Sequence record: NC_070990.1 | Direction: 5' to 3' (one strand) | From: Escherichia phage MN03 | Length of the DNA: 64,000 bases | Shown here: positions 8,449 to 64,000 of the stretch, piece by piece | How the letters are laid out: the number at the start of each line of letters is the position of its first letter | Numbering within the stretch: position 1 is the stretch's first letter | The notes under the pieces: generated by a model | What the model was told of the DNA's origin: nothing | What the model saw: only the letters and a program-made list of their open reading frames with translations | The model's database searches: none | Program-made: the position numbers and the translations under genes

Positions 8449-8940
8449 ATGGATAACGTCGCATTGCCACCTGTACAACTAAACTTAAGCCCAGCTGGAA
8501 TGGAATTCATCATGAAGCATGAGGGTATGAGAACAAAGGCTTATAAAGATTCCGCAGGTATCTGGACTATATGTGTAGGGGCTACGCGCGATATGAATGG
8601 TTATCCGGTTAGACAAGGATTAACGTATTCTATAGAGGATTGTCTAGCTCTGCTAGATAGAGACACACAAGACTCTGTTCGTGCTACTCAGAAGAACATA
8701 AAGGTTCCTTTACTAGTTCATGAGTTTGATGCACTCACTTCTTTCAACTTCAATGTTGGCAGTGGGGCTTTGAGCACATCTAAGTTAAGGAAGGTAATCA
8801 ATGGAGATGTTAAGGGGGATGTTTATTCCGAATTTCTTCGTTGGGATAAAATAACGGTCAAGGGAGAGAAGCAGAGAAGTCAGGGTCTTCATAATAGAAG
8901 AGTTGCAGAAGCTAATCTTTACACCGAAGGTAAATATTAA
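8449..8940 (+). CDS. lysozyme (GH24 phage lysozyme family)
   Basis: MKHEGMRTKAYKDSAGIWTICVG and FNFNVGSGAL motifs typical of T4 e / lambda R-type lysozymes. Confidence 0.75.
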   Translation: MDNVALPPVQLNLSPAGMEFIMKHEGMRTKAYKDSAGIWTICVGATRDMNGYPVRQGLTYSIEDCLALLDRDTQDSVRATQKNIKVPLLVHEFDALTSFNFNVGSGALSTSKLRKVINGDVKGDVYSEFLRWDKITVKGEKQRSQGLHNRRVAEANLYTEGKY

Positions 8941-8952
8941 TGGAGGTGCCTT

Positions 8953-9756
8953 TTGGCTATCGAAACTAATGCGGTAGTTATTACCGACTTAAACCCACTC
9001 TATCCTAGAGACAGGGATTACATCTACGAAGGGGCGGCTCAAATCCGCCTCATTAAACAAACGTTACAGAACACATTCCCCAATGTTACAGAACCGGTTG
9101 ATATAGATTCTGACACCTTTAAGATTATGTCAGAGAAGCTCAAGTTTACTGGTGATGCAATGGATGTTGGTGGTCTTATGATCAAGAACGTTACTCCGGG
9201 AACTGGTGACAAGGATGTTGTTACTAAAGGTCAGATGGAAGCGTTCATGAAGAACTGGATGGAGAATAAGCTCTATCGAATTGGTTCTTACTACATCACT
9301 GAAGAAGATATTAACCCCGGTGATTCTATCTCCTTAGGGTTTGGTTCTTGGGCTAAAGTGACTGGTGTCATTATGGGTACTGGTGTAGTAAACCCTGATG
9401 GTTCTGTCCCTAATGCTCAGAGAGTTGAGTTCCAAGCAGGTGGTACTGGTGGTCGTGTCTTCAATACCATTCGAACTGAGAACGTACCTCTGATGACAGT
9501 TAATGGCTCCAGCTTCTCTCTATCCAGTAACACTCACAGTCACAATATGGTGTTTGGTCGTGGAGATGCTAGTGGTCATAACAGCTCACCAAACTGGTAT
9601 AGTCCGGGTGGTGGTTACAGTCAGAGAACTGATAGCGACACTCACACTCATACAATCTCTGGTAGTGTAAGTCTTGGTCGTGATGATATCTCTCGTCAAC
9701 CTATTAACACTTTGCCACCATTCAGAGCAGCTCACATTTGGAGACGTATTAGCTAA
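8953..9756 (+). CDS. tail protein with HxH motifs (fibre-tip-like)
   Basis: TTG start with GGAGG RBS; His-rich THSHN / THTHT motifs like metal-binding fibre tips. Confidence 0.4.
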   Translation: MAIETNAVVITDLNPLYPRDRDYIYEGAAQIRLIKQTLQNTFPNVTEPVDIDSDTFKIMSEKLKFTGDAMDVGGLMIKNVTPGTGDKDVVTKGQMEAFMKNWMENKLYRIGSYYITEEDINPGDSISLGFGSWAKVTGVIMGTGVVNPDGSVPNAQRVEFQAGGTGGRVFNTIRTENVPLMTVNGSSFSLSSNTHSHNMVFGRGDASGHNSSPNWYSPGGGYSQRTDSDTHTHTISGSVSLGRDDISRQPINTLPPFRAAHIWRRIS

Positions 9757-9765
9757 GGAGGAATT

Positions 9766-12700
9766 ATGGCGCTGTATCCAATAAAGTCACTAGGTGCTGT
9801 AGGCGTTATCGCTGATCAGGCTCCGACAGACTTAGCTCCTAATGCTTTCACTAATGCTATAAATGCTCGATTTGTTGAGCAGAGAGTATTTAAGACGGGG
9901 GGCAATGCCCCTCTTTCTTATGTAGATGAAGATAAGGATTTAACCCCTCTGTCTTTCGTTTCTATGCCTTTCGATTATTATAGCGCAGGTAATAGCTTTC
10001 TTGTTGTAGGTACGGATAAGAAGTTATATAAACTGACAGATGAAAGCTTGACTGATATTAGCCGTAAGGTTGCTACAGTCACTAAGAAGGCTTCTGCCTC
10101 AATTAAGATTTATCCAGTTGTTTCTCAGATCGTTCCTAAAGAATCAACTATCTCAATGAACTTCAATCAGACCAAGAATCTAGAGGTTTCTCTTCTCCCT
10201 GCTGATGCTAACAATACTGATCTTATTTGGGAGGTTAGTAACTCATCCTATGGAAGTATTGCGGTAGACCCTAGTGACTCTAAACTTGCTACTCTAACAT
10301 CTTTTGAGAAAGAGGGTAATCTTGTAGTAACTATCTCTACTGCCAATGAATCCGTAGTGGCTCAGATTGCTGTTAATATTATCGACGGTGATTCAGGCAT
10401 CTTCTTGAGTCAAGACACTGTTACAATTCGTAAAGGGGGGACTACTACTCTCACGGCTGTTACTGGCAAAACTCCTGTAACTTGGTCCAGCAATAACGCT
10501 TCTATTGTATCCGTAACCCCTAACGCCAACTCTTTAACTGCTGTCATTACAGCGAATGGAGAAGGTAATGTAACAATCACTGCTGATAACGGAACGAAGA
10601 TTGCTTCTTGTGAGGTTGTTTCCATCCCTCAGATTGATAGTATCTCTTTAAGCCAGTCAGATGTTACTGTTAGTAGAGGTTCTCAGTATATCTTAACTGC
10701 TACCCTTTCTCCTGCTAACGCCCCTAATCAAAATATTACTTGGACCTCTTCTAATCCAAATATTGCAACAGTATCAGGGACTAGCACACAAGGGACGATC
10801 AACGCTCTACTTGCTGGTTTTACTGAGATTACAGCTACCACTGAAGAAGGTAACAGAGTTGCTGTCTGTACTGTACGTGTGGATTTAGCTGGAAGGACAA
10901 TGAGAACAAGTGCTATGGCATTTGCCGCTCCTGTGTCAGAGTCAGTAGAAACTCAAGAGGAAGAAGTAGTAACTCCTCCTGAAAGTGAAGAGACGGTTTA
11001 TTTTGCTGAGCCTACATCCGGTATTGATACGTCAGGGATGTACGAAGGTAATAACTTCTATGACTACTCTAACGTGAATGACATTGAAGGTTTTGCAAGA
11101 GCTTCTTTACTGGCAACCCCTTTGTCATCTGTAACCTTAGATATTGTCAGTGCTTCTCTTGATGTTGGTGAAGAGATTGTCATTACAGCCACAGCTTCTC
11201 CAGAAGGTGAGTACTCTTATCAGTGGTCTGTTGATAAAACTGGTTATGTTTCTACAACCTCAGTTACTGGTAAATCTATCAAACTGGTTGCTCTTCGTAA
11301 AGGGGAGATTAATGTAACATGTACTGTCAGTCAGATGACTCAGAAAGATTACGATGCTTTTGATGACTATCCTTGGTATCACGCTGTTATCTCTAACTGT
11401 GCAGTTGCTACAACTCACTATGAAACTCCTCAGGTAAAAGAATTCGAATCAGAATACTTTGTAGACCTTCCGGGATGGGGTGAGCAAACAGTTGTGGATA
11501 ATGATGGAAACCCTTCAGTCAAGAAGTTTAACTGGAAATGTGAGAGAGTAAGATCTTTTAACAACCGTCTTTTTGCTCTGAATATGAGAGAGGCTAATGC
11601 TTCTGGTGTTACCACTAACTATCCGCTTCGTCTTCGTTGGTCTAACTTTGCCAATGAGAACAAGGCTCCTACACTGTGGGATGACTTTGCCTATGATCGA
11701 GTTGTGTCTTCGGACTTAGCTTCTAACATCGTAGGGCAGACTCAGGCTCTAGAGAATGGGTATGCTGGTTACATTGACTTAGCTGACTCTAATGGTAGCT
11801 TGATTGATATCCTGCCTCTTAAAGATTACTTGTTTGTTTATACAGAGTTTGAAACGTATATTGGTTCTCCAACTAATAACACGTACCAACCTCTAATGTT
11901 CAAGAAGCTTTTTAACGACTCTGGTATCCTTGCTCCTGAGTGTGTGGTTGAAGTAGAAGGTAGTCACTTCGTAGTTACTCAGAACGATGTAATCTTACAC
12001 AACGGTGCAACTAAGAAATCAATTGCATCTAACCGTGTCAAGAACATGCTGATTAACGAGGTGTGTCTGGTTAATCCTTTAGCAACTCGAGTACACTTGC
12101 ATCAGGATAAGAAAGAGGTTTGGGTTCTGTATGTAGGTCCGGGGGAGCCAAAAGAAAGCTTCGCTTGTACTAAAGCTGCTGTATGGAACTACGAGTTTGA
12201 TACTTGGTCCTTCCGTACTATCCCATATGCTCAGTGTATTGGTCTGGTTGATCCTCCTGTTTTAGAAAGAGGTCCAATCTGGTCCGACTTCCAAGAAATC
12301 ACTTGGGATGATCCATCTATTAAAGAACTCGTTTGGAGAAAGGATGCAACAAACTTTAGACAGAGGGTTACGATAGTAGGTTCATTCTTGAAGGGATTCT
12401 ATCAAGTGGATGTGGGTGCTCTTGATTACTTCTATGACAGGCTAAATGATGTTGTTATAGAGAAGCCTCTGGAAATGAGGTTGGAGAGGACTGGTATAGA
12501 TTTTGATAATGTGACGAATGAGTGGAATCAGAAGCATATTAACAGGTTCCGACCTCAGACAACTGGTTCAGGTACTTACATATTTGAAGCTGGTGGTAGT
12601 CAATTCTCAAATGAATATGGACACCCACACACATCTAAGACATATACGATCGGTGTTGACAGGCATGTCTCGGTGAGACTGAACCATCCATACCTTTTCT

Positions 12701-12783
12701 ATAATGTTATAGATAATGATGTTAATAGTAATGCTGCTATCAATGGTTTAACGATAGAGTTTGCTGTTGGCGGGCGGAGATAA
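9766..12783 (+). CDS. large virion structural protein with tandem Ig-like (Big_2) domains
   Basis: AAGGAGG RBS; about 4 Big_2-like repeats in the N-terminal half; 1005 aa. Confidence 0.55.
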   Translation: MALYPIKSLGAVGVIADQAPTDLAPNAFTNAINARFVEQRVFKTGGNAPLSYVDEDKDLTPLSFVSMPFDYYSAGNSFLVVGTDKKLYKLTDESLTDISRKVATVTKKASASIKIYPVVSQIVPKESTISMNFNQTKNLEVSLLPADANNTDLIWEVSNSSYGSIAVDPSDSKLATLTSFEKEGNLVVTISTANESVVAQIAVNIIDGDSGIFLSQDTVTIRKGGTTTLTAVTGKTPVTWSSNNASIVSVTPNANSLTAVITANGEGNVTITADNGTKIASCEVVSIPQIDSISLSQSDVTVSRGSQYILTATLSPANAPNQNITWTSSNPNIATVSGTSTQGTINALLAGFTEITATTEEGNRVAVCTVRVDLAGRTMRTSAMAFAAPVSESVETQEEEVVTPPESEETVYFAEPTSGIDTSGMYEGNNFYDYSNVNDIEGFARASLLATPLSSVTLDIVSASLDVGEEIVITATASPEGEYSYQWSVDKTGYVSTTSVTGKSIKLVALRKGEINVTCTVSQMTQKDYDAFDDYPWYHAVISNCAVATTHYETPQVKEFESEYFVDLPGWGEQTVVDNDGNPSVKKFNWKCERVRSFNNRLFALNMREANASGVTTNYPLRLRWSNFANENKAPTLWDDFAYDRVVSSDLASNIVGQTQALENGYAGYIDLADSNGSLIDILPLKDYLFVYTEFETYIGSPTNNTYQPLMFKKLFNDSGILAPECVVEVEGSHFVVTQNDVILHNGATKKSIASNRVKNMLINEVCLVNPLATRVHLHQDKKEVWVLYVGPGEPKESFACTKAAVWNYEFDTWSFRTIPYAQCIGLVDPPVLERGPIWSDFQEITWDDPSIKELVWRKDATNFRQRVTIVGSFLKGFYQVDVGALDYFYDRLNDVVIEKPLEMRLERTGIDFDNVTNEWNQKHINRFRPQTTGSGTYIFEAGGSQFSNEYGHPHTSKTYTIGVDRHVSVRLNHPYLFYNVIDNDVNSNAAINGLTIEFAVGGRR

Positions 12784-12789
12784 CAACAA

Positions 12790-12816
12790 GGGGCTTCGTG
12801 CCCCTTTTATTGTTTT
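12790..12816 (+). terminator. rho-independent terminator
   Basis: GGGGC-TTCGT-GCCCC hairpin plus TTTTATTGTTTT. Confidence 0.65.
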
Positions 12817-12826
12817 GGAGGAACTT

Positions 12827-13795
12827 ATGGGTGCAGGTGGTTTTCGTAAGAATACTGGTCGCAACAACACCACACTCCCGTACAACGTTGGGTTTCTCAA
12901 TAATGTACAGGACACAGAAACATATAACGTAGCCGTGTATGATGAATTACAAAAAGTTAGCACAGCTACTAACCAAATGTTCCAAGCTATAGATGAAATT
13001 CACGAAGAGATTGATGTTCGTATTAAAGCTCTTAATGCAATGAATCTACAATTTGATGAGCTTGAGAATAGAATTACTACAGAGATAGAAACAGCTATTG
13101 CAGATATCCAAACCCAGATGGGGAACCTGTCCACTGAGGACATTTGGGATAATTCTGTTCAACCTCCTGTGAAGCTAGAAAGCACTGTATCTGGTTTTAA
13201 GACCAGCATCGAAGATAACACAACTAAAATTCAGACAGTAGAAGGTATTGTTAACGATCAAGGTCAAGAGATTGCTCTTGTTCAGACAGAACTGCAAAAT
13301 ATCAACGGAAGCCTTTCTCAGTATATGAAACTCTCTGAGTATGAAGCTACGTGGGGTGTTAACTCTACAGTCAACGGAAGATATGCTGGAGTCAAGTTAA
13401 CTAACAACGGAACAAACAGTCAATTCCAAGTAACAGCTAACAAATTTATTGTTGGTGATGGCAGCTCTGGGAATACCCCCTTCGTATTTGAGGGTGGGCG
13501 AGCTAGGATGGAATTCGCTGACATAAAGAACGTCAACATCACAACTGCTCAGATTGCCAACGCTAGGATCCAATGGGCACAGATTGATAACGTATCTATC
13601 TCCAATGCTCAGATTCAGAACTTATCAGCGGATAAAATCACTGCTGGTTCTATGTGGGGTTCTAACTGGAGACTTACTGTTGGTGGTGATTTTGTTATGG
13701 GTGGTACAGGTGGTTCTCAGTTGTGGATGAATGGTAATAGAATAGATTTTTATGATGGGAGTGGAACTCTTCGAATAAGAATAGGGAGTTGGTAA
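12827..13795 (+). CDS. tail fibre-like protein
   Basis: GGAGGA RBS at this ATG (the ORF-track start at 12761 overlaps the terminator hairpin); coiled-coil N-part and NVSISNAQIQNLSADKITAGS fibre-like motif. Confidence 0.5.
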   Translation: MGAGGFRKNTGRNNTTLPYNVGFLNNVQDTETYNVAVYDELQKVSTATNQMFQAIDEIHEEIDVRIKALNAMNLQFDELENRITTEIETAIADIQTQMGNLSTEDIWDNSVQPPVKLESTVSGFKTSIEDNTTKIQTVEGIVNDQGQEIALVQTELQNINGSLSQYMKLSEYEATWGVNSTVNGRYAGVKLTNNGTNSQFQVTANKFIVGDGSSGNTPFVFEGGRARMEFADIKNVNITTAQIANARIQWAQIDNVSISNAQIQNLSADKITAGSMWGSNWRLTVGGDFVMGGTGGSQLWMNGNRIDFYDGSGTLRIRIGSW

Positions 13796-13796
13796 C

Positions 13797-14831
13797 ATGG
13801 CATATGGAATATGGACACGCCCGGTTGGTCCGGGTCCAGCGGCACCTGCTGATATTTACATCGATAGTGGTAGCACATTCCCTCAACTCAGAAATAGAGT
13901 CAGTGGGAATTTCTCTTTTAGTGGAAATACCTGTGACTTGCCTATAAGTGGTTGGGATGGTAGTGGTCAGATAGTTGTAGTTCCAACAGGGTCTGTTGTT
14001 TGGGAGAGATACATACCTCCTAACGTAACGTCTGATGTGTATTGGATAACGGATATATCTGTTATTAATAACTCAACCTTCAGAGTTACTATGGACTATA
14101 ATGTAAACGGTTGGGTATTTGATATGGCTTTTAATGTGTATCAAATATGGCCTAGAGCTAACAGGAATTATGGAATCACATTCTCCAACTCTGCTGACTA
14201 TTTCTCAATATCCGATTCTGGGGTTGTTGGTCAATGTATTTGGGCTTGGGAGGGTGACATAAATGGTTCTCTTCAAATACCAGATATTGGTGGTTTTGAT
14301 ATGAGCCGAGCAACTGTCTACGCGAATTGGAGTAACGGTGGAGCAGGGCTGCTATACAATCCATCCAATAGGGTTGTTTATGTGTACCAGAACAGGTCTC
14401 ATGATAATGGTAACACAAACCAAACAGGATACATTGGTGGTGTTAGAATTGCCGTCTTCTGTGATGGTTCTGGAGTACCAACCCACAATGGTGGTTTAAA
14501 TATCTTCTCTCCAAATGGGTCTCAGTGTGTATTTTCTACATATAGAACCCCTTTTAGTGTTGAGGGATTTATGCCTATGAGTGGCGGTAACACATCTCTG
14601 GCCTATCCAATGATACCACTATCTTACGGAGCAGGAGCAATAAGAGGCAAGGCTAGTGGTTGGTATTTTCAACACACAAGATCTCACATGATGAATGGCT
14701 CTTCTTTCGGTACAGGTTTCGGAAGGATGATTTACTCTTGGAGTAGTCAATATGATTTAGGAGGGGGTGGTGCCCTCGGGTTAAGTATTCCAATATTAGA
14801 TGCTAGAAAGATATTCAGGAGTATACAATAA
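13797..14831 (+). CDS. hypothetical virion or tail protein
   Basis: Tightly coupled to the upstream gene; 344 aa. Confidence 0.4.
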   Translation: MAYGIWTRPVGPGPAAPADIYIDSGSTFPQLRNRVSGNFSFSGNTCDLPISGWDGSGQIVVVPTGSVVWERYIPPNVTSDVYWITDISVINNSTFRVTMDYNVNGWVFDMAFNVYQIWPRANRNYGITFSNSADYFSISDSGVVGQCIWAWEGDINGSLQIPDIGGFDMSRATVYANWSNGGAGLLYNPSNRVVYVYQNRSHDNGNTNQTGYIGGVRIAVFCDGSGVPTHNGGLNIFSPNGSQCVFSTYRTPFSVEGFMPMSGGNTSLAYPMIPLSYGAGAIRGKASGWYFQHTRSHMMNGSSFGTGFGRMIYSWSSQYDLGGGGALGLSIPILDARKIFRSIQ

Positions 14832-56363: not shown

Positions 56364-56596
56364 TACTCGCCTTTCTTAGCACGATCTTTGGCAGTTTTGC
56401 CAGTGCGGATGCGATGAGAAACGTTAACCAGAGTGCCACCATCAACTACGGTAACGCTCTTGTTTTTAGCCAGATCGAACACAGTTTTCTCTGTGCCACC
56501 CAAGCGAATTTGCTTAGGTTCGCTGAAGGTTTGGGTTGATTTGGATTGGAACTGGAACGGTTGACGGATTGCATCAATTGCACTTACTTTAGACAT
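56363..56596 (-). CDS. hypothetical basic protein
   Basis: ORF. Confidence 0.35.
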   Translation of the reverse strand: MSKVSAIDAIRQPFQFQSKSTQTFSEPKQIRLGGTEKTVFDLAKNKSVTVVDGGTLVNVSHRIRTGKTAKDRAKKGE

Positions 56597-56827
56597 AGGG
56601 GAAATTCCTTAAAAAGTCATGGCTGCGTAGAGGGAATTCCCTACGCAAATTGGGCCGCCCACAGAGAGGCGTCATAGTACTAAAAGGAGGAGAGAAGAGA
56701 GCCTATTTAGCTACTTTTTTCTGTCCGTTTACGAACCAGATAATTGAACCGTCAGGCTGTCGTTGACCGAAGCCTTTCTGGTTAATCATATCGTCATAAG
56801 AATATGCTTTACGTCTCATTTGTTTTC

Positions 56828-57082
56828 CTACGAAGTTAAGATGATTTCAGCCTTAATAAACTTCTCACCAACAACCATATCACCAGAGATGACACGTAGT
56901 TCTCCAGTGCCTATGTTAACAGCTCCAGCAGGTTGACAACCCCTGCTTTTAGCTGTCATCATATAAACCTTTTGATTTTGGCACTCTTGGAGAGTGAACA
57001 CATCTGACATATTTAGATCTCTGACGCGGAGGATTTTTTCCTCTTTGTCTTTAACTTTAATGTTAATAATGCTCATATGCAC
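56828..57082 (-). CDS. small paralog family protein (GxVF family), member 11
   Basis: LNMSDVFT motif. Confidence 0.4.
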   Translation of the reverse strand: MHMSIINIKVKDKEEKILRVRDLNMSDVFTLQECQNQKVYMMTAKSRGCQPAGAVNIGTGELRVISGDMVVGEKFIKAEIILTS

Positions 57083-57327
57083 TACTCCTGAACCACTGAC
57101 ATACGAATCATTTCTACCTGATCATCAAGACCTTTAACAGATAACACACCTGTGGAAAGGTTTACCACAGGAACCCAACCACTGGCTATACGGATGTTAC
57201 CAGAAGCATTTTCAACCCTCATATAATACTGAGGAGAGGCACTTCCGTGCTGAATCACGAAAGGGTTTCCGGGAATGATTGTTTCCAATCGAACCGTATT
57301 ATCCTTTTTCTTTGGGATGATTTTCAT
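57082..57327 (-). CDS. small paralog family protein (GxVF family), member 10
   Basis: MKIIPKK start; IIPGNPFV motif. Confidence 0.4.
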   Translation of the reverse strand: MKIIPKKKDNTVRLETIIPGNPFVIQHGSASPQYYMRVENASGNIRIASGWVPVVNLSTGVLSVKGLDDQVEMIRMSVVQE

Positions 57328-57575
57328 TATGTATTATCCACCAAAAGTTCTGCCGACACAGGAATAACTCGACAATAAATAGAAGGTGCTGTTACATTGC
57401 CATCAGACAGACGAAGAGTGATTGATCTGTCAGAGTTGATAGTAACGTTTGGACTTGCAGACACAGACCCTTTGACATACAGGGTTGCATTGTCAGGAAA
57501 CTTAAACACAGCTCCGCTGGGAAGTGAGTTGAGGTCAACTGTAGTCACTTCTTCTTTCTTGTGAGTAATCTTCAT
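57327..57575 (-). CDS. small paralog family protein (GxVF family), member 9
   Basis: Trimmed to MKITHKK; LNSLPSGAVFKF motif. Confidence 0.4.
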   Translation of the reverse strand: MKITHKKEEVTTVDLNSLPSGAVFKFPDNATLYVKGSVSASPNVTINSDRSITLRLSDGNVTAPSIYCRVIPVSAELLVDNT

Positions 57576-57576
57576 A

Positions 57577-57807
57577 TTATTTACCCTGAATAATAAGTTT
57601 AGATTCGAACAGATCAACAGTATTGGACAAAGGGACAGGAAAGAAAATATCTTTAGGGTTCCGAACACACATTGCAGAATGCTCCCCTGTTTTTATCCAG
57701 AATTTAGGGACTACATCGTCACCAGTAAAACGAAAAACATCTCCATTCTCCAAGTCAGAGAAAGTCTTGGAGGGTGTTTTGCTTTTTGGTACTAGCTCAA
57801 AATTCAT
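57577..57807 (-). CDS. small paralog family protein (GxVF family), member 8
   Basis: LENGDVFRF ... KFWIKTG. Confidence 0.4.
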   Translation of the reverse strand: MNFELVPKSKTPSKTFSDLENGDVFRFTGDDVVPKFWIKTGEHSAMCVRNPKDIFFPVPLSNTVDLFESKLIIQGK

Positions 57808-57815
57808 CTTGATTC

Positions 57816-58127
57816 CTATTTAAGTTTGAGGCTAATGTTAAGGTGCATACATGCCCTGTTCTGTACAGCAGCATAACTTCTACCAAGCATGTCAGCCATT
57901 CTCTGAATAGACATAAACCCGGCATTACGGATAAGGAACTGATCTTCTTCTTTAGACCACTTGACTCGGATTGAAGCTCTTGATATTCCGAATTTAGTGC
58001 AAGCTGTGTTAACAGCATTCTCCGTTACATTCATAATCTGAGCAACTTCTTGAACCGAGTACTCTTTGATCAGTCTCCGAAGATTTTCAATCTGCATCGG
58101 AGTCCATATAGTTCTTCGTGCTTTCAT
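57816..58127 (-). CDS. DNA-binding protein with two tandem HTH-like repeats
   Basis: Two repeats of W(T/S)xEE...L...VQExAQxMN... type. Confidence 0.4.
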   Translation of the reverse strand: MKARRTIWTPMQIENLRRLIKEYSVQEVAQIMNVTENAVNTACTKFGISRASIRVKWSKEEDQFLIRNAGFMSIQRMADMLGRSYAAVQNRACMHLNISLKLK

Positions 58128-58417
58128 ACATCCTCCAATTAAACGTTTATATAAGACTTGCTTAGATAAAGATTCAATAAAATAGGGGGAGGGGACGAAT
58201 CCTCCCTTATCCTATTAGTTAATATTGCATGTAAGATCTAACAATCGGTTGCCTTTGTAGGAATAAGCGTTATGCTAATCCAGCACTAAACTCCCGCCCC
58301 CTTAGTGGGCTGGGTTATTAAAGGGTAACGCCCTTATGGGCTAGTTACATGAATGTTAGTTTGATAGGAGATCTGAAGTCCTATCTCAAAGGACTCTCGT
58401 AAGAATCCTTCACGATA
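58128..58417. other. 290-bp structured noncoding region
   Basis: No ORF with RBS; hairpins GGGAGG...CCTCCC and AGTCCT...AGGACT. Confidence 0.3.
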
Positions 58418-58675
58418 TTACTTAAAGATAAAATGCATAACTGCATCATATGCTTTAAACAGAAGCCAACCTATTGGATAAAAAACTCCTGACAGTATTG
58501 AGATAGGCCACAACACAATTAAGAGAACAACCATCATCTCATCAGGTTCAGAGCTGGTAGACCCTGTTGTAATGACCCCTTTTAGTAGACCTTTCTTGTA
58601 TAGCAGTTTCATCACTAAGACAGAAAGGAATACTCCAATAAAGTAAACTGAGATAAAAATATCAAGTAAACCCAT
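58418..58675 (-). CDS. small multi-TM membrane protein (holin-like candidate)
   Basis: 85 aa, 2-3 predicted TM segments. Confidence 0.4.
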   Translation of the reverse strand: MGLLDIFISVYFIGVFLSVLVMKLLYKKGLLKGVITTGSTSSEPDEMMVVLLIVLWPISILSGVFYPIGWLLFKAYDAVMHFIFK

Positions 58676-58824
58676 TTAATCGTCTCTTACTTGTTCAACT
58701 TTCGTCGGCTATCTCTCCAAGCCAACCAAGTGTAGGTTTTCAGTTCTTCAAAGTCTTCTGGAGAGAATAGATAATCTTTGAAGGTGTTCCCAAACCACTC
58801 TAAAAATTCTTCAGTCATAAGATT

Positions 58825-59001
58825 CTCTTAACAAGATTGGTCACACGGCTGATCACCACATGTTTTACAGATCACTGGTGAGTAACTACAGGCAGGATAA
58901 ACAGACACCCCATCAAACGTCTCACATCCACAATCAGGACATGTACCGTTGGATTCCATGTCATCATCGTCATCTACTTCACCGCCACCAAAACAACTCA
59001 T
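58825..59001 (-). CDS. Cys-rich small protein (58 aa)
   Basis: Strong AAGGAG RBS; 10 Cys including CPDCGC and CKTCGD. Confidence 0.35.
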
Positions 59002-59010
59002 ACAGGCTCC

Positions 59011-59232
59011 TTAGTAAACTAAACCTGTAGCCTTTGCATCAGGCTGAGGGACTACTTTTGCACTAGGGCGATAGCCATCCACTGAGCCGTTCCAAAGATT
59101 GACACAGGTGATATATCCATCGTCTATGATGTCTGTTTTAATCCAGAAGTGTTTATCATGACCAAAAATACTTCCGTTTGGCAGCGTGGACAGCTCAACG
59201 GTTTTAAGTGACTGCTTAGAGTCTAGTTTCAT
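59011..59232 (-). CDS. small paralog family protein (GxVF family), member 7
   Basis: LSTLPNGSIFGHDKHFWIKTD. Confidence 0.4.
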   Translation of the reverse strand: MKLDSKQSLKTVELSTLPNGSIFGHDKHFWIKTDIIDDGYITCVNLWNGSVDGYRPSAKVVPQPDAKATGLVY

Positions 59233-59241
59233 ATAAGTTCC

Positions 59242-59439
59242 TTAATATACCAAACCATGTAAAAGAAACACCCTCTTTGTAAGCTCTGCTTTAGCTCTGT
59301 AATAAGCCTTAGAACCTAACAGGCGGCTCTTAACAAAGAACTTAATGTCATTGCTAACATCTTGTATTAAACGCTCCTGTACAGTTTCTGAGGAGTTATT
59401 AATCGAATCAATTAACACCTTTGTAGATGTGTAATTCAT
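59242..59439 (-). CDS. hypothetical protein
   Basis: Trimmed to an internal ATG next to the lipoprotein stop. Confidence 0.3.
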   Translation of the reverse strand: MNYTSTKVLIDSINNSSETVQERLIQDVSNDIKFFVKSRLLGSKAYYRAKAELTKRVFLLHGLVY

Positions 59440-59440
59440 A

Positions 59441-59740
59441 TCACCACTCCTTACCAGTGGTAACTGTAGAGCCACCACACCACAACGCTGTATCAATCAC
59501 AACATTATCCGGTGTAGATTTCTCTTCGTTGACAGAGGGGTTAGCATTAGAGCAGGTTGCTCCGTTCCAGCGCATATCAATTTCACCAGAAGGAACCTTC
59601 TCACCTTTATGCCAGCGAGAAACACAAACACCTTCCACTGCTACTGCACACCATCCATCAGGACGGCTCTGTACGCAGCCTGTAAGGGCTATGCAGACAA
59701 GGAAGATACAGATTAGGGATATTACACCACCCCAACTCAT
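59441..59740 (-). CDS. predicted lipoprotein
   Basis: Signal peptide with lipobox ALTGC; Cys-rich mature part. Confidence 0.5.
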   Translation of the reverse strand: MSWGGVISLICIFLVCIALTGCVQSRPDGWCAVAVEGVCVSRWHKGEKVPSGEIDMRWNGATCSNANPSVNEEKSTPDNVVIDTALWCGGSTVTTGKEW

Positions 59741-59759
59741 AACTGCCTCCTATTAGATT

Positions 59760-59835
59760 TGGTGCGCCCTACAGGACTCGAACCTGTAACCAATAGCTTA
59801 GAAGGCTACTGCTCTATCCATTGAGCTAAGAGCGC
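59760..59835 (-). tRNA. tRNA-Arg(UCU): tRNA-Arg (anticodon UCU)
   Basis: Manual fold: acceptor GCGCTCT/AGGGCGC, D-arm GCTC/GAGC, anticodon stem GTAGC/GCTAT with loop CTTCTAA, T-arm ACAGG-TTCGAGT-CCTGT, discriminator A, encoded CCA. Confidence 0.85.
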
Positions 59836-59843
59836 AGAATTAT

Positions 59844-60008
59844 TTAGATCATATCTCGCTTGGTGATATGACCACATGTTTTACATCGAAGTATATAACG
59901 AGTACCTGTGTCTTCTATTTGACCGATCTCATTGTATATGTGTAAACGAATTTCTTTTATTGTCTCCCAATCATGGAGATGGAAGAAACGTTTAAACCAC
60001 TTGAACAT
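59844..60008 (-). CDS. zinc-ribbon protein
   Basis: CKTCGH motif. Confidence 0.3.
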   Translation of the reverse strand: MFKWFKRFFHLHDWETIKEIRLHIYNEIGQIEDTGTRYILRCKTCGHITKRDMI

Positions 60009-60015
60009 ATTAACC

Positions 60016-60267
60016 TCAAGCACAAGCAGGGAGTGTGATGATTTTATGCTTACCATCAAACTCTCCAAATAAACCTAAGAATGTGGGACTGTAAGTACCA
60101 GTACAAACAAACTCATCAAACAATGCGTTATAACTAGGCTTAATCTTCCAAGCCCATACATAACCCATCTTGTCAATTGCAATATAACGAGTGTTCAGAG
60201 GAACAGCCATCATCACATCATTAACTGCAATCACTTTAGTTATTGGTGCAGCTTGGAAGTTTTTCAT
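60016..60267 (-). CDS. hypothetical protein
   Basis: ORF. Confidence 0.3.
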   Translation of the reverse strand: MKNFQAAPITKVIAVNDVMMAVPLNTRYIAIDKMGYVWAWKIKPSYNALFDEFVCTGTYSPTFLGLFGEFDGKHKIITLPACA

Positions 60268-60488
60268 CCTACTCTCCTAACGTTTAGGGTAGCTTGATAA
60301 AATTTGACAGGACAACTTCTGTCAAACGTAAATCTTGTTTCAGGATTATTTATACAGATAGCATGTCTGTGCATAACCTTCATATATAAAGGAGGTTTTG
60401 TATCCCCATCTATCTCTAGAGAGAACACATCACCATTACGGAGGCTACCAAAAGTGTTATCTTTAGGCTCAGAGCGAACGATAATCAT
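60264..60488 (-). CDS. small paralog family protein (GxVF family), member 6
   Basis: LRNGDVFSL. Confidence 0.4.
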   Translation of the reverse strand: MIIVRSEPKDNTFGSLRNGDVFSLEIDGDTKPPLYMKVMHRHAICINNPETRFTFDRSCPVKFYQATLNVRRVG

Positions 60489-60661
60489 ACTTTACCTTTG
60501 ATAAAAATATCATTACCACAGACACAGCATGAACGAACAACAGTAGCGCCACGCTGAACGATACGAACCTCTTCCTTAACCAGATTAATACGAGCACCGC
60601 AGCAAGGAGAGTTGACATAAGAGTAACCAGCTTGCGTATGTTTGATTGTTTGCTTAGACAT
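60488..60661 (-). CDS. Cys-rich zinc-ribbon protein (57 aa)
   Basis: Own translation; CCGAR ... CCVCGN. Confidence 0.3.
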
Positions 60662-60699
60662 TTTAGCTTCCTCTTGTTAGTTTAAGTAAGAGTTGTCCC

Positions 60700-60734
60700 T
60701 TAATTAAAACAACAAAGGCCGCCCGAAGGCAGCC
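60700..60734 (-). terminator. rho-independent terminator (minus strand)
   Basis: GGCTGCC-TTCG-GGCGGCC hairpin plus TTTGTTGTTTT on the minus strand. Confidence 0.55.
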
Positions 60735-61131
60735 TCTCTTTATTTGTTAACTGTTATACGTCCAATTACCTTGCTTGTTACGGATGGCTGACATTGCATG
60801 AATCCAAAAGCCTTCCAGTTTCAGAGCACCATTAGCTACTGCATCCATACGTTCAGGGCGGTTCATACGTTTGGTTGATACTTTCATACATATCTCTCTT
60901 TGTTAGTGGAGGCATTATTGCCAGTTGATATAAGGGATAGCCCTAGTCAGGAGGCTAATTCTGACCGCGTACTCATTGCCGACCTTCTCTGCCTAAGAGT
61001 TCAGGTTCTAGAGCTATCTCTTATTCCAACTGGTGAAGACTTCCTACCCCTAGGAAGTCTCCTGAATCCCAAACCAATACGTACCCCTACATATTGGAAA
61101 GTCTTTCGAAAATTAACAGGTTTTAGTCTAG

Positions 61132-61245
61132 CACCGGATGTTCGAGCAAGCTCTCCCTAGCGGTGTGGCATATGCCTGAATTAATAAGTTAATGAGGAAC
61201 ACCCTCACATAGCCCTCTGATAAACACAAGGGCTATAAGTCGGTG
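61132..61245. repeat. conserved noncoding element, copy B, inside a 355-bp gene-free gap
   Basis: Same three blocks and hairpin as copy A; begins right after a minus-strand stop codon. Confidence 0.5.
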
Positions 61246-61464
61246 TTACTTTTGGGATAAACACAGATCGGGACGTGGCATAACAGTGGTTGATAGACCG
61301 AAGACTTCAACAGAACCACTGCTCAAGTTAGCAGCCTTACACAAACCATCAGGGGTTTTATCTTCTAGCATCAGCCAGAAACGTTTATCATAAGAGAAAA
61401 CATCACCACCTTTAACGTCCTCTGCATTTGCATATTTAGGATAATCAACTACTTTAATTTCCAT
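61246..61464 (-). CDS. small paralog family protein (GxVF family), member 5
   Basis: VKGGDVFSYDKRFWLM. Confidence 0.4.
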   Translation of the reverse strand: MEIKVVDYPKYANAEDVKGGDVFSYDKRFWLMLEDKTPDGLCKAANLSSGSVEVFGLSTTVMPRPDLCLSQK

Positions 61465-61474
61465 CTAATTGCCC

Positions 61475-61693
61475 TTATTGATATATAGAAAGGTGGATAA
61501 GTTTATTAACATGAGCGAAGTTAGGAAGGATTTGCATCTCATTGTTGAAGATATTAAAACAACGAACCCCGCCCTCTACAGCATAAGCAGATTTCTGAAA
61601 CAGACTGCCTCCCCACACAAATACATCATGTGTTTCAAGAGATCGTAACTGAACAGCCTCGTCAACAACCTTCTTTTCAATGTTCATATTCAC
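61475..61693 (-). CDS. small paralog family protein (GxVF family), member 4
   Basis: LRSLETHDVFVW. Confidence 0.4.
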   Translation of the reverse strand: MNMNIEKKVVDEAVQLRSLETHDVFVWGGSLFQKSAYAVEGGVRCFNIFNNEMQILPNFAHVNKLIHLSIYQ

Positions 61694-61941
61694 TTCCGAT
61701 TGGTAATTACTGCATCATGGATAACTGAAACAGGTAAGTTTGAATCTAGCTTCATTACTTGATTGGTGCTTAAACTGAGCACTACACAACCATTCCGAAG
61801 ATCAGTCTCTGACACATGTGGTGTATATAACTGAACGATCATGTAATAATCAATACATGTTGCCTTAACTTGGAATACATCACCAAGTTTCAAATCACCC
61901 ACACACAATTCTTTAGCTTTCATCTTAAGATCAATCTTCAT
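61690..61941 (-). CDS. small paralog family protein (GxVF family), member 3
   Basis: LKLGDVFQV. Confidence 0.4.
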   Translation of the reverse strand: MKIDLKMKAKELCVGDLKLGDVFQVKATCIDYYMIVQLYTPHVSETDLRNGCVVLSLSTNQVMKLDSNLPVSVIHDAVITNRK

Positions 61942-62167
61942 CTTTAGCCTCTATGTTGGTTATGTGAAGATCACTACGTACTTGGCAGACTTCATCCCGT
62001 TTAAAAGGCATGAGCTTTCCAGTTACCACATCAACACAGTTGACATAATTGTCTGCGTACAATGTGTCGGTTCTGATGTAAAGGGATTCTTTACGCTCAA
62101 ACAGAACCCCCGGCTTCATGTTATTTAAGCGAAGCATTGTACGATCGGATTTAATATTAACTTTCAT
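61931..62167 (-). CDS. small paralog family protein (GxVF family), member 2
   Basis: MKPGVLFER. Confidence 0.4.
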   Translation of the reverse strand: MKVNIKSDRTMLRLNNMKPGVLFERKESLYIRTDTLYADNYVNCVDVVTGKLMPFKRDEVCQVRSDLHITNIEAKDED

Positions 62168-62169
62168 CT

Positions 62170-62427
62170 TTAATCCACCTTATTGGTAAGTCGAGCATTA
62201 TCAACTACCTGAACAACAGTATCTTTTCTCAACATTGTTATTCTATCCGAAGTGAGATCTACTACTACTCTTTCGTCAGGCTTCCAACTAGCTGAATAAA
62301 CGGTTGAGGAATCTAGCTTTACTGTAAGATATATTTTATTTTTAGGTGGAACAGTTTCAAAAACACTCCCCACCTTCAGGTCTTTCAGTTGCTTGACTAC
62401 AGGGGCTGTATTAATATCATGCTTCAT
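62170..62427 (-). CDS. small paralog family protein (GxVF family), member 1
   Basis: Trimmed to MKHDINT with AGGAG RBS; LKVGSVFE. Confidence 0.4.
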   Translation of the reverse strand: MKHDINTAPVVKQLKDLKVGSVFETVPPKNKIYLTVKLDSSTVYSASWKPDERVVVDLTSDRITMLRKDTVVQVVDNARLTNKVD

Positions 62428-62713
62428 TGTTAATCTCCTGCTGTTTAGCAATAGCCACTCGCAAGTCTTCATTAGCACGAGCAAGGCGTAACACTTCGTG
62501 GTTGAGGTTCTGAAGACGCTTGTTTCTGTCCTCTACTTGCATAATAAGATCGTTAAGTGTTACTTTAACTTTCTCATTATACATCTCATCCACTCGAACT
62601 AGGGATTTATACATTCTCTCCCAGCTTGCTGCTTTGTTTCTGAGAATAATAAATCCTAGAACGCTGATAGTTAAACAGCTTACAAAAAGGAATTTATATA
62701 CTTCTAAAGTCAT
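62417..62713 (-). CDS. small membrane / coiled-coil protein
   Basis: N-terminal TM then a heptad-rich helix; first gene after an AT-rich intergenic region. Confidence 0.4.
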   Translation of the reverse strand: MTLEVYKFLFVSCLTISVLGFIILRNKAASWERMYKSLVRVDEMYNEKVKVTLNDLIMQVEDRNKRLQNLNHEVLRLARANEDLRVAIAKQQEINNEA

Positions 62714-62913
62714 ATCATTTTACCCTTTATCAGAGATTAAAAGTAATATTATTTAAGTAAGTTATATTTAGTAAACTTATTTTCTAAGAAATTTTCAAAG
62801 GGTCTATATACAGAGCATTACCCATAGTCCCAGAATACTACCATCTTTTTCAATAAATTTACTAAGTGGTTGGTTTATAAAGGAATTTAGTTTGTCAAAT
62901 CTGGCACTAGTGA

Positions 62914-63303
62914 TTATTCCCTAGAGCTATTATCGAACACTAAATCACCACAATACATAGGATTGGCATACCATTTTGGCACCCCTTCGCTCTTACTCTG
63001 AAAGTAAGTCCCACTGTACAGCGGAACATAATTCTTCTTAAGGGCACGTTTAGCAAGTCGCTCGCTTTCTCCAATGGCTTGCTTAGTCATCGGATTTTTA
63101 TCACGAATCAGCTTTACATAACGTTTATAAGGTTTCTCCTGTTTTAATAGTACCGGAATCCACTCAAACTGGTTCTTCTGTCTTATCACCTGTTCAGCGG
63201 TCAGTTTTCGTTGGGCCATTCTATTTATCACGGTATCCGCAACTAAAGCCTTACATGCGGTTGGCTGATTCCCTGCCTCATAATAAATAGTCAATGTCAA
63301 CAT
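62914..63303 (-). CDS. cell-wall hydrolase, SleB/CwlJ-like
   Basis: IYYEAGNQP ... VINRM ... QVIRQKNQF ... YSGTYF ... GDLVF pattern; weak RBS. Confidence 0.5.
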   Translation of the reverse strand: MLTLTIYYEAGNQPTACKALVADTVINRMAQRKLTAEQVIRQKNQFEWIPVLLKQEKPYKRYVKLIRDKNPMTKQAIGESERLAKRALKKNYVPLYSGTYFQSKSEGVPKWYANPMYCGDLVFDNSSRE

Positions 63304-63413: not shown

Positions 63414-64000
63414 TTACCACTCGTAACTTACACCAGCGCCCAGAACAGCGTCACTCTCTGAAGTCATTGCCACTGATGCTTTAGTTACTAAGTTTTCATT
63501 GAAACGAGCACTAACACCAATAGCAAGAGCAGATTCACCATCGTAAGCACCTACCCCAGCACCAACAGAGAAAGCAGATCCTTGACTTACTTGCGGGATG
63601 TTAGCCATTGCAGCCACGCCAGAAATACCAGCAGAGGCATGATCACGGTTACGGTCTACTTGTTTTTGCAAAGAAGCAAAACGTTTATTGGTGGATTGTT
63701 CCAGAGCTTTGATGGATTTGGCGTTAGCATTAACGGCAGACATATCTGCATCTTTACCGTTTTTGCCATTTAATCCGTCAACGCCATTCAAACCTGCTGC
63801 ACCAGTTAGGCCAGTTTCGCCTTTCTTACCATCTGCACCAGAATCACCTTTTTCACCTTGAGCGCCTTGTTCTCCATCAATGCCATCTTTACCATCAATG
63901 CCATCTTTACCATCAATGCCATCTTTACCATCAATGCCATCTTTACCATCAATGCCATCTTTACCATCAATGCCATCTTTACCATCAATGCCATCAATGC
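63414..64000 (-). CDS. collagen-like repeat protein with YadA-type C-terminal anchor domain (5' end outside window)
   Basis: Frame is open to the window edge and reads (GIDGKD)n GEQGAQGEKGDSGADGKK...; C-terminus ...AAMANIPQ...FSVGAGVGAYDGESALAIGVSARFNENL...GAGVSYEW resembles YadA. Confidence 0.55.
   Translation of the reverse strand, partial: IDGIDGKDGIDGKDGIDGKDGIDGKDGIDGKDGIDGKDGIDGEQGAQGEKGDSGADGKKGETGLTGAAGLNGVDGLNGKNGKDADMSAVNANAKSIKALEQSTNKRFASLQKQVDRNRDHASAGISGVAAMANIPQVSQGSAFSVGAGVGAYDGESALAIGVSARFNENLVTKASVAMTSESDAVLGAGVSYEW
63880..64000. repeat. 18-bp tandem repeat (ACCATCAATGCCATCTTT), about 7 copies, coding collagen-like G-X-Y repeats
   Basis: Perfect tandem units; in frame with the minus-strand CDS. 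Confidence 0.8.

Follow-up and report, generated by a model that had tools for sequence, protein, structure and literature searches.

The analyzed window is a stretch of 64,000 nucleotides from Escherichia phage MN03 (sequence record NC_070990.1), the genome of a Kuravirus (phiEco32-like, Gordonclarkvirinae). A preliminary description of this DNA had pointed to eleven small open reading frames (ORFs) on the minus strand between positions 56828 and 62427, and all eleven were found to be present, each at the low coordinate that had been given for it. They sit in a right-arm block of small minus-strand genes. This block had been taken for an early region, and the same label is used in the papers on the phiEco32-like phages SU10 and YF01, according to which it is transcribed by the host RNA polymerase (PMC4281155, PMC9965538). 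The analysis revealed that the eleven ORFs are true homologues and that they belong to a large, ancient and widespread family that has not been described, which is here called N4 gp21 / LUZ24 gp7-like. The members were named m1 to m11:

62170..62427, minus strand: m1, 85 amino acids (aa), MKHDINT...GSVF...; no phiEco32 counterpart
61931..62167, minus strand: m2, 78 aa; equivalent of phi32_115; its 3′-end overlaps the start of m3
61690..61941, minus strand: m3, 83 aa; the positional match is the 69% identical allele phi32_114
61475..61693, minus strand: m4, 72 aa from a GTG start; no phiEco32 counterpart
61246..61464, minus strand: m5, 72 aa; equivalent of phi32_113; closest paralogue m7 (phmmer 1e-10)
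60264..60488, minus strand: m6, 74 aa; equivalent of phi32_109; closest paralogue m8; absent from phiEc_1
59011..59232, minus strand: m7, 73 aa; equivalent of phi32_104; AlphaFold model with a predicted local distance difference test score (pLDDT) of 82.8
57577..57807, minus strand: m8, 76 aa; equivalent of phi32_98; AlphaFold model with a pLDDT of 83.6; absent from phiEc_1
57327..57575, minus strand: m9, 82 aa; equivalent of phi32_97; its stop overlaps the start of m10
57082..57327, minus strand: m10, 81 aa; equivalent of phi32_96; its stop overlaps the start of m11
56828..57082, minus strand: m11, 84 aa from a GTG start; equivalent of phi32_95

Overlapping stop and start codons link m9, m10 and m11 as well as m2, m3 and m4, pointing to translational coupling within both groups, and a purine-rich, Shine-Dalgarno-like ribosome-binding site precedes most members. 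For two members the translation start was revised, because the annotations of Bas90 and phiEco32 agree and the Shine-Dalgarno sequences are better: m4 probably starts at the ATG at 61687, which results in a protein of 70 aa, and m11 probably at the ATG at 57076 (82 aa).

A multiple alignment of the eleven proteins yielded the consensus MKI...L..L..GDVF...Y...V.L..G...V, and the Phe of the motif was the single invariant residue. The G-x-V-F motif that had been reported to be shared by the members exists in a relaxed form (Phe in 11/11, Gly in 9/11, replaced by His in m4 and by Ser in m11), but only about 7/11 members have the strict pattern. The aromatic-(I/M)-K element that had been seen to follow often was recovered as aromatic-(M/I/L)-(K/R) in most members. 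In a broader alignment of 144 family sequences the Phe was found in every sequence (100%, 144/144), the Gly in 96%, and V60 and G49 in 92% and 84%, respectively. The motif of the whole family comprises an N-terminal M-K-I, L..L..G-[DE]-V-F, aromatic-[MIL]-[KR], V-N-L-x-x-G, and a C-terminal V-x-P...L-x-[IV]. Among the eleven members, the most similar pairs in phmmer comparisons were m5-m7 (1e-10), m6-m8 (1e-9), m2-m7 (2e-6), m1-m3 (1e-5), and m7-m9 (1e-4).

Short ORFs with pairwise identities of only 13-28% in the multiple alignment might share a motif by compositional chance and might not be genes at all. This explanation has a negligible probability and is effectively excluded. When each member was scored with a hidden Markov model (HMM) from which it had been left out, the scores were 13.8-33.9 bits, compared with 4.5-10.5 bits for the best of 1000 shuffles of the same sequence, and every member lay above all of its 1000 shuffles. 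The alignment and the shuffling control thus answered the question whether the motif is significant beyond composition, which the preliminary description had itself put forward as a check: the similarity is not compositional. The family HMM was also applied to the 639 ORFs that a six-frame translation of the window gives at a minimum length of 40 aa, and the 11 members were retrieved at E<=1e-17, while the next best ORF had E=0.24. An HMM based solely on 13 distant metagenomic representatives without a BLASTP match (E<1e-3) to any window member retrieved all 11 at E<=2e-5 and no other ORF (next ORF 0.17), and the HMM of the broad 144-sequence alignment matched all 11 at E<=1.7e-11. Purifying selection, confident structure models, and 680 homologous clusters, all of which are described below, further argue against chance. 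The family profile did not reveal a twelfth member among the 639 ORFs. Two candidates were considered and rejected, namely 46492-46704 (minus strand), of which only the C-terminal 29 residues were matched with 9.6 bits, and 60747-60887 (minus strand), for which the match was too weak.

The breadth of the family was determined with several searches. A word-indexed search with the profile of the 11 sequences yielded 94 clusters, all with a length of 54-86 aa and many from contigs of 57-80 kb; all of them lacked Pfam domains and names indicating a function. When 1.84 billion representatives were searched exhaustively with HMMER, 680 clusters (50% identity) were obtained at E<=1e-3. Most of these are single-domain proteins of 68-87 aa, and the family also includes natural fusions, namely proteins with two domains (125-186 aa) and a 515-aa protein with about six repeats. 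One match of 470 aa (P0095) was removed as a false positive, since it is an RCC1-repeat protein that was picked up via a short repeated motif. The family consensus is MKIKDKKKNKTVEFKDIKVGDVFRFDEEDLYMKVS...INAVNLSSGVLTHFEDDTKVEPIDAELVVK. Proteins of several well-known phages were matched by the 144-sequence profile, namely N4 gp21 (E=3e-16), LUZ24 gp7 (YP_001671880, 77 aa; 1.9e-11), PaP3 ORF65 (8e-9), and gp112, gp131, gp133 and gp110 of Salmonella phage 7-11 (2.6e-13 to 1.6e-5). In the PHROGs database the family is divided over about ten groups of unknown function, including phrog_6570, 7832, 16423, 7431, 9955, 10911, 12612 and 33163, which cross-match among the window members (best 8e-55).

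Existing annotation did not help to assign a function. Pfam searches were negative for the 11 members, for 10 long or multi-domain relatives, and for the 144 aligned sequences; scattered matches to DUF7399 and PinA, in at most two sequences each, were at chance level and were discarded. NCBIfam and PADLOC contained no match to the family, and a profile search of the PDB sequences revealed nothing below E=0.4. The genes are annotated as hypothetical proteins throughout, except for some GenBank records, in which the product names of orthologues conflict with one another (“endonuclease,” “endolysin” and “DNA helicase” in EcoN5, “two-domain glycosyltransferase” in NJ01) and should be disregarded. 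When distant representatives and the family consensus were compared with cultured phages by tblastn, few matches were obtained, and scans of representative bacterial genomes revealed no relative at the sensitivity of a pattern scan. A scan of viral contigs with the family member P0163 retrieved nothing, and a scan with m7 retrieved only four kuravirus loci and one weak partial match at a site devoid of family members. Paralogy of these genes in phiEco32 or Kuravirus was not mentioned in the texts that were searched, which did not include the original phiEco32 genome paper (PMC2587145).

Structure prediction made it possible to name a fold, which the preliminary description had left without a name. 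AlphaFold2 models based on family alignments had a pLDDT of 82.8 for m7 (core >90) and of 83.6 for m8, and five beta-strands were predicted in each of them. In the models, the strands are antiparallel and make up a barrel of about 60 residues that is closed or partly open. Thus the proteins are predicted to be stand-alone SH3-like (SH3/Tudor/KOW-like) small beta-barrels of about 70 residues. The earlier proposal that one small fold is re-used fits these models, since m7 and m8 share the same predicted five-stranded barrel and conservation is found in core and turn positions. In the 144-sequence alignment, 20 well-occupied columns had more than 2 bits; they comprise 14 hydrophobic positions, 2 glycines, and no more than 4 polar positions (K2, D21, K32 and T33 in m7 numbering). 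All other positions are highly variable. The pattern is that of a conserved scaffold with a diversified surface: the core and the turn glycines were kept, and the exposed strands and loops diverged. The isoelectric point (pI) ranges from 4.9 to 9.3 across the eleven members, and the net charge differs between members. Column conservation and pI spread together are unlike the pattern of a uniform DNA mimic or of a uniformly basic nucleic-acid binder. A Foldseek comparison of the m8 model with the PDB revealed nothing below E=0.5. The Pfam models KOW, Tudor and CarD_TRCF matched 0/11 members and 0/144 family sequences, even at E<=1.

To what extent the genes are under selection was determined across related phages, as had been suggested. 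For orthologues of at least 75% identity, the pooled ratio of non-synonymous to synonymous substitutions (dN/dS, Nei-Gojobori) was 0.13 for the family genes, and the same value of 0.13 was obtained for the non-family early genes. This showed that purifying selection maintains the genes and thereby indirectly supports their translation. The description of the set as large and diversified was borne out: the paralogues are 15-40% identical, and no DNA similarity was detected between any two of them (blastn, word size 7). Furthermore, for 10 of the 11 members an outside representative (<60% identity) is a closer relative than any paralogue in the same phage, which argues that the divergence is ancient; the set is old or was assembled by exchange. 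A recent burst of tandem duplications was considered as the origin and was rejected, because the nearest paralogues are non-adjacent and lack DNA similarity, and because of the closer relationship of 10/11 members to outside sequences.

The behavior of the genes in close relatives was markedly dynamic. A megablast search with positions 56500-62800 matched 143 phage records, phiEco32 among them, and the best matches were the Escherichia phages SkaterBoy_Bas90 and DE5 with 97.4% identity at 88% coverage. Only 12/143 related records covered at least 80% of these positions, and none covered more than 89%, compared with 59/98 records at a coverage of at least 80% for a replication region of equal length. 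The homologous regions of 12 kuraviruses were scanned with the profile, and copy numbers from 3 to 11 were found: 3 in LAMP (68-kb clade), 8 in phiEc_1, EcoN5 and SDYTW1, 9 in phiEco32, ES17, KBNP1711 and one IMG/VR genome, 10 in Bas90, NJ01 and Ptacy1532, and 11 in the MN03 window. Of the eleven members, m7 alone occurs in every genome that was compared. The gene m1 is absent from phiEco32, phiEc_1 and LAMP, and other kuraviruses carry alleles that are 28-64% identical; m4 is absent from phiEco32, ES17, EcoN5 and LAMP. In the m3 slot, alleles of 58-69% identity are found in phiEco32, ES17, EcoN5 and Ptacy1532, and m11 alleles of 52-55% identity are found in NJ01, ES17, Ptacy1532 and phiEc_1. 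Bas90 and Ptacy1532 have a different family member in the m8 slot; its closest counterpart in the window is m9, with only 29% identity. Overall, divergent alleles of 28-69% identity occupy slots whose flanking genes are 93-100% identical. Both polymorphism in presence and polymorphism of alleles thus occur among close genomes with conserved flanks. Within the early region of the kuraviruses compared, no other accessory genes are as variable as those of the family.

The comparison with phiEc_1 revealed how the changes are delimited. In the replication genes (6.3 kb), this closest relative of MN03 matches the window with 99.9% identity, but it is devoid of m1, m6 and m8, and its m11 and m9 alleles are 52% and 88% identical, respectively, while the non-family genes in between are 94-100% identical. 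Each of the indels comprises exactly one gene, with junctions at 57575/57807, 60264/60488 and 62167/62427. The junctions fall on start codons (ATGAA on the coding strand, corresponding to ...TTCAT on the plus strand), and thus the conserved M-K N-terminus coincides with the recombination joints. Recombination may use the ATGAA start as microhomology, but it may also be that only in-frame joints survive selection.

The preliminary description had offered a hypervariable cassette as one possible explanation of the set. The part of this proposal that stood is variability by whole-gene presence and absence and by swaps of deeply diverged alleles, but no sign of hypermutation was found. The very different alleles per slot in otherwise near-identical phages could be taken to suggest a programmed system, such as a diversity-generating retroelement (DGR) or another kind of targeted mutagenesis or recombination that diversifies one gene. 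However, such a system needs a pair of template and variable repeats, and no such pair exists, as the paralogues lack DNA similarity; dN/dS is 0.13 in close orthologues and the divergence is ancient; and the differences are whole-gene indels and swaps instead of clustered point changes. A DGR-type cassette is therefore largely refuted, with a very small residual probability, and can be regarded as effectively excluded.

Arrays of the family were also found in other elements. One contig of 61 kb and 32% GC from the metagenome ERZ16268292, presumably an unrelated phage, contains 16 member ORFs within 6 kb (8838-14819), one of which is a two-domain ORF, and their mutual identity is 26-47%. Phage 7-11 has at least 4 copies. 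The eleven copies had been called unusual, and this has to be tempered in the light of these two cases, which indicate that array expansion is a recurrent property of the family. In most other contexts that were retrieved there are one or two members per locus, including a 157-kb phage contig, an element with DUF932, DUF4313 and reverse-transcriptase genes, and two further contigs. On two metagenomic contigs (24 and 12 kb), a member is surrounded by genes for DUF932, DUF4313, DUF6927, cREC_REC and reverse transcriptase, a set that is typical of accessory regions of conjugative elements or plasmids and not of virulent phages. A cluster of amidoligase, glutamine amidotransferase and COOH-NH2 ligase genes was observed beside the early region in kuraviruses (LAMP), in phage 7-11, and in the Pseudomonas Bruynogheviruses PaP3 and LUZ24. 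The shared presence of this cluster and of the barrel family in Bruynogheviruses hints at a common ancestry of an early-middle module.

Several additional features were observed within and next to the array in the MN03 window:

60737-60714, minus strand: strong intrinsic-terminator-like hairpin with a 10-bp GC-rich stem and a T-run
60888-61245: non-coding gap of 358 bp inside the paralogue array
57816-58127, minus strand: mid-array gene for a helix-turn-helix / sigma-70 region-4-like protein of 103 aa, annotated as “D5-like transcriptional regulator”
58206-58187: terminator-like hairpin upstream of the regulator-like gene
58418-58675, minus strand: hydrophobic, membrane-like ORF of 85 aa
59760-59835, minus strand: tRNA-Arg(TCT)
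62914-63303, minus strand: protein of 129 aa with a SleB-type cell-wall hydrolase domain (Hydrolase_2, E=1.7e-7)
63414-64000, minus strand, ORF extends past the end of the window: collagen-like G-x-x repeats followed by a YadA-like outer-membrane anchor (PF03895, E=2.9e-20)

The hairpin at 60737-60714 and the 358-bp gap indicate that the array consists of two or more transcription units; Rfam families matched at neither of the two sites. The regulator-like gene lies immediately upstream of m8-m11. The ORF 58418-58675 was found only in phiEc_1 among nine relatives compared, and it is another accessory insertion of the early region. The tRNA gene is located in the early operon between a lipoprotein gene and the small ORF 59844-60008, a position that is kept in related phages. 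The SleB-type gene is located in the early region, apart from the late genes, and is 98-100% conserved in all compared kuraviruses. The product of 63414-64000 has the architecture of a trimeric autotransporter adhesin, here in a phage, and it is annotated as “tail protein” in Bas90 and phiEco32 (gp119).

Concerning the biological function, the reading that we favor, albeit with somewhat less than even confidence, is that each barrel acts as a stoichiometric binder of a distinct component of the host or of a rival element, and that the array constitutes a strain-adaptive repertoire, probably for counter-defense. According to this model, the eleven ORFs are real, co-transcribed early genes of one ancient phage family, their products would be small stoichiometric binding modules, and each paralogue would recognize a different component of the host or of a competing element soon after infection. 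The role would most likely be accessory counter-defense or adaptation to host strains, and not general shut-off, and the repertoire is remodeled by gain, loss and allele replacement of whole genes at the gene boundaries with their ATGAA start. The model is based on the early position, the combination of a scaffold with a variable surface, the charge diversity, and the accessory-gene dynamics, together with the literature on LUZ24 gp7, SU10 and accessory regions. LUZ24 gp7, the one family member with direct experimental data, was among 13 early proteins that were expressed in P. aeruginosa, and only gp4, gp6, gp9 and gp11 inhibited growth (PMC4635203 and supplement); the lack of inhibition by gp7 makes a role in general shut-off unlikely. 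The Gordonclarkvirinae are unusually resistant to restriction-modification systems and other tested defenses, and no inhibitor is known (PMC11990801). Variable accessory regions are reportedly enriched in counter-defense genes (bioRxiv 10.1101/2023.04.06.535777). A bolder version of the model, which we regard as rather unlikely, is a modular “binder library,” in which a minimal SH3-like barrel would have been expanded again and again into arrays (11 copies in MN03, 16 in the unrelated contig), each barrel copy would neutralize a different bacterial immunity or host-range determinant, and whole genes would be shuffled between phages at the ATGAA start, which would make it a phage counterpart of the multigene families for immune evasion in poxviruses. 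If true, such a library could explain the resistance of the Gordonclarkvirinae to nearly all tested defense systems.

Translation, the binding function, the identity of the targets, and with them a role in host takeover or anti-defense, are inferred, and several observations weigh against a repertoire of binders. Neither sequence nor structure matched a known anti-defense protein (Pfam, NCBIfam, PADLOC, PDB sequences); specifically, there was no profile match to the anti-defense families represented in Pfam (e.g., Ocr, ArdA, DUF2829/Tad2) or to the defense proteins in PADLOC. Non-family early genes vary as well, e.g., 59441-59740 and 59844-60008. Close orthologues have no excess of non-synonymous changes, and thus there is no direct arms-race signature beyond the turnover of alleles and copies. 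The neighboring genes in other phages do not include a consistent partner. Lastly, proteomics of crude SU10 particles identified 34 proteins, none of which belongs to this family; these data also speak weakly against a virion role.

The main rival of the binder model is that the proteins are nucleic-acid-binding or RNA polymerase- or ribosome-associated regulators (KOW, Tudor, CarD/UvrD-CTD-like) that tune early transcription or translation. It is the fold neighbors, and nothing else, that suggest this, and several results make it unlikely: 0/144 members match the KOW, CarD_TRCF or Tudor models of Pfam, the pI range of 4.9 to 9.3 does not fit a uniform basic surface, LUZ24 gp7 is non-toxic, and eleven variable and dispensable copies fit poorly to a single conserved target machine. 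As a third option, the copies could be subunits of one function and form homo- or hetero-oligomers, e.g., an early scaffold, a chaperone or a multivalent adaptor. The natural fusions (two-domain proteins of 125-186 aa, the 515-aa protein with about six repeats) and the translational coupling in m9-m10-m11 and m2-m3-m4 would be in line with oligomers. However, related phages thrive with 3 to 10 copies and differing subsets, and N4, LUZ24 and PaP3 have a single clear copy each, so that this option is quite improbable.

With these genes recognized as one fold family, about ten PHROGs of unknown function merge into a single superfamily, which comprises at least 680 clusters (50% identity), and a link is drawn between orphan genes in four model phages (N4, LUZ24, PaP3 and phiEco32). 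Kuraviruses are candidates for phage therapy. In view of the natural knock-outs and allele variants, and of the insensitivity of kuraviruses to defense systems, the eleven genes are a tractable starting point for unraveling mechanisms of host interaction and counter-defense. The interest would rise considerably if the binder library or a counter-defense role turned out to be true; simple regulators or scaffold subunits would be less surprising, but would still represent a useful new domain family.

Among known proteins, N4 gp21, LUZ24 gp7, PaP3 ORF65 and the proteins of phage 7-11 resemble the MN03 set in size, in the motif MKI...L..G[DE]VF...YMK...VNL.tG...V.P, in the predicted fold, and in the early or middle position of their genes, and all are annotated as “hypothetical protein.” The difference is the copy number, as N4, LUZ24 and PaP3 have one clear copy each and MN03 has eleven. 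With known small early phage proteins that target the host, such as LUZ24 gp4 (Mip), phiEco32 gp79 and T7 Gp2, the MN03 set has in common the size class, the early expression and the presumed stoichiometric binding, but there is no homology, and the family member in LUZ24 is gp7 and not Mip (gp4). The family profile matched no other ORF of the window. The fold neighbors within the SH3-like superfold are Tudor, KOW, EF-P domain I, the C-terminal domain of uL2, the SH3 domain of DtxR, FeoA, the antitoxin VapX, and the RNA polymerase-binding Tudor domains of CarD and UvrD/PcrA. The identity to these proteins is 5-20%, there is no match in Pfam or among the PDB sequences, and neither the aromatic cage of Tudor domains nor the glycine-lysine signature of KOW domains is evident in the conserved columns. 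By the behavior of its genes, the MN03 set resembles the accessory or hyperplastic early regions that are rich in counter-defense genes: the genes are small, non-core and early, with presence/absence polymorphism and divergent alleles. In contrast to those regions, many slots in MN03 are filled by one fold family and not by unrelated genes. The arrays have expanded independently in different lineages, and in this they may be likened, by analogy, to accessory regions and to the multigene families of poxviruses. Taken together, the family itself is new to the literature searched, and by its fold and its genomic behavior it represents a familiar kind of object, i.e., small accessory early proteins of phages.

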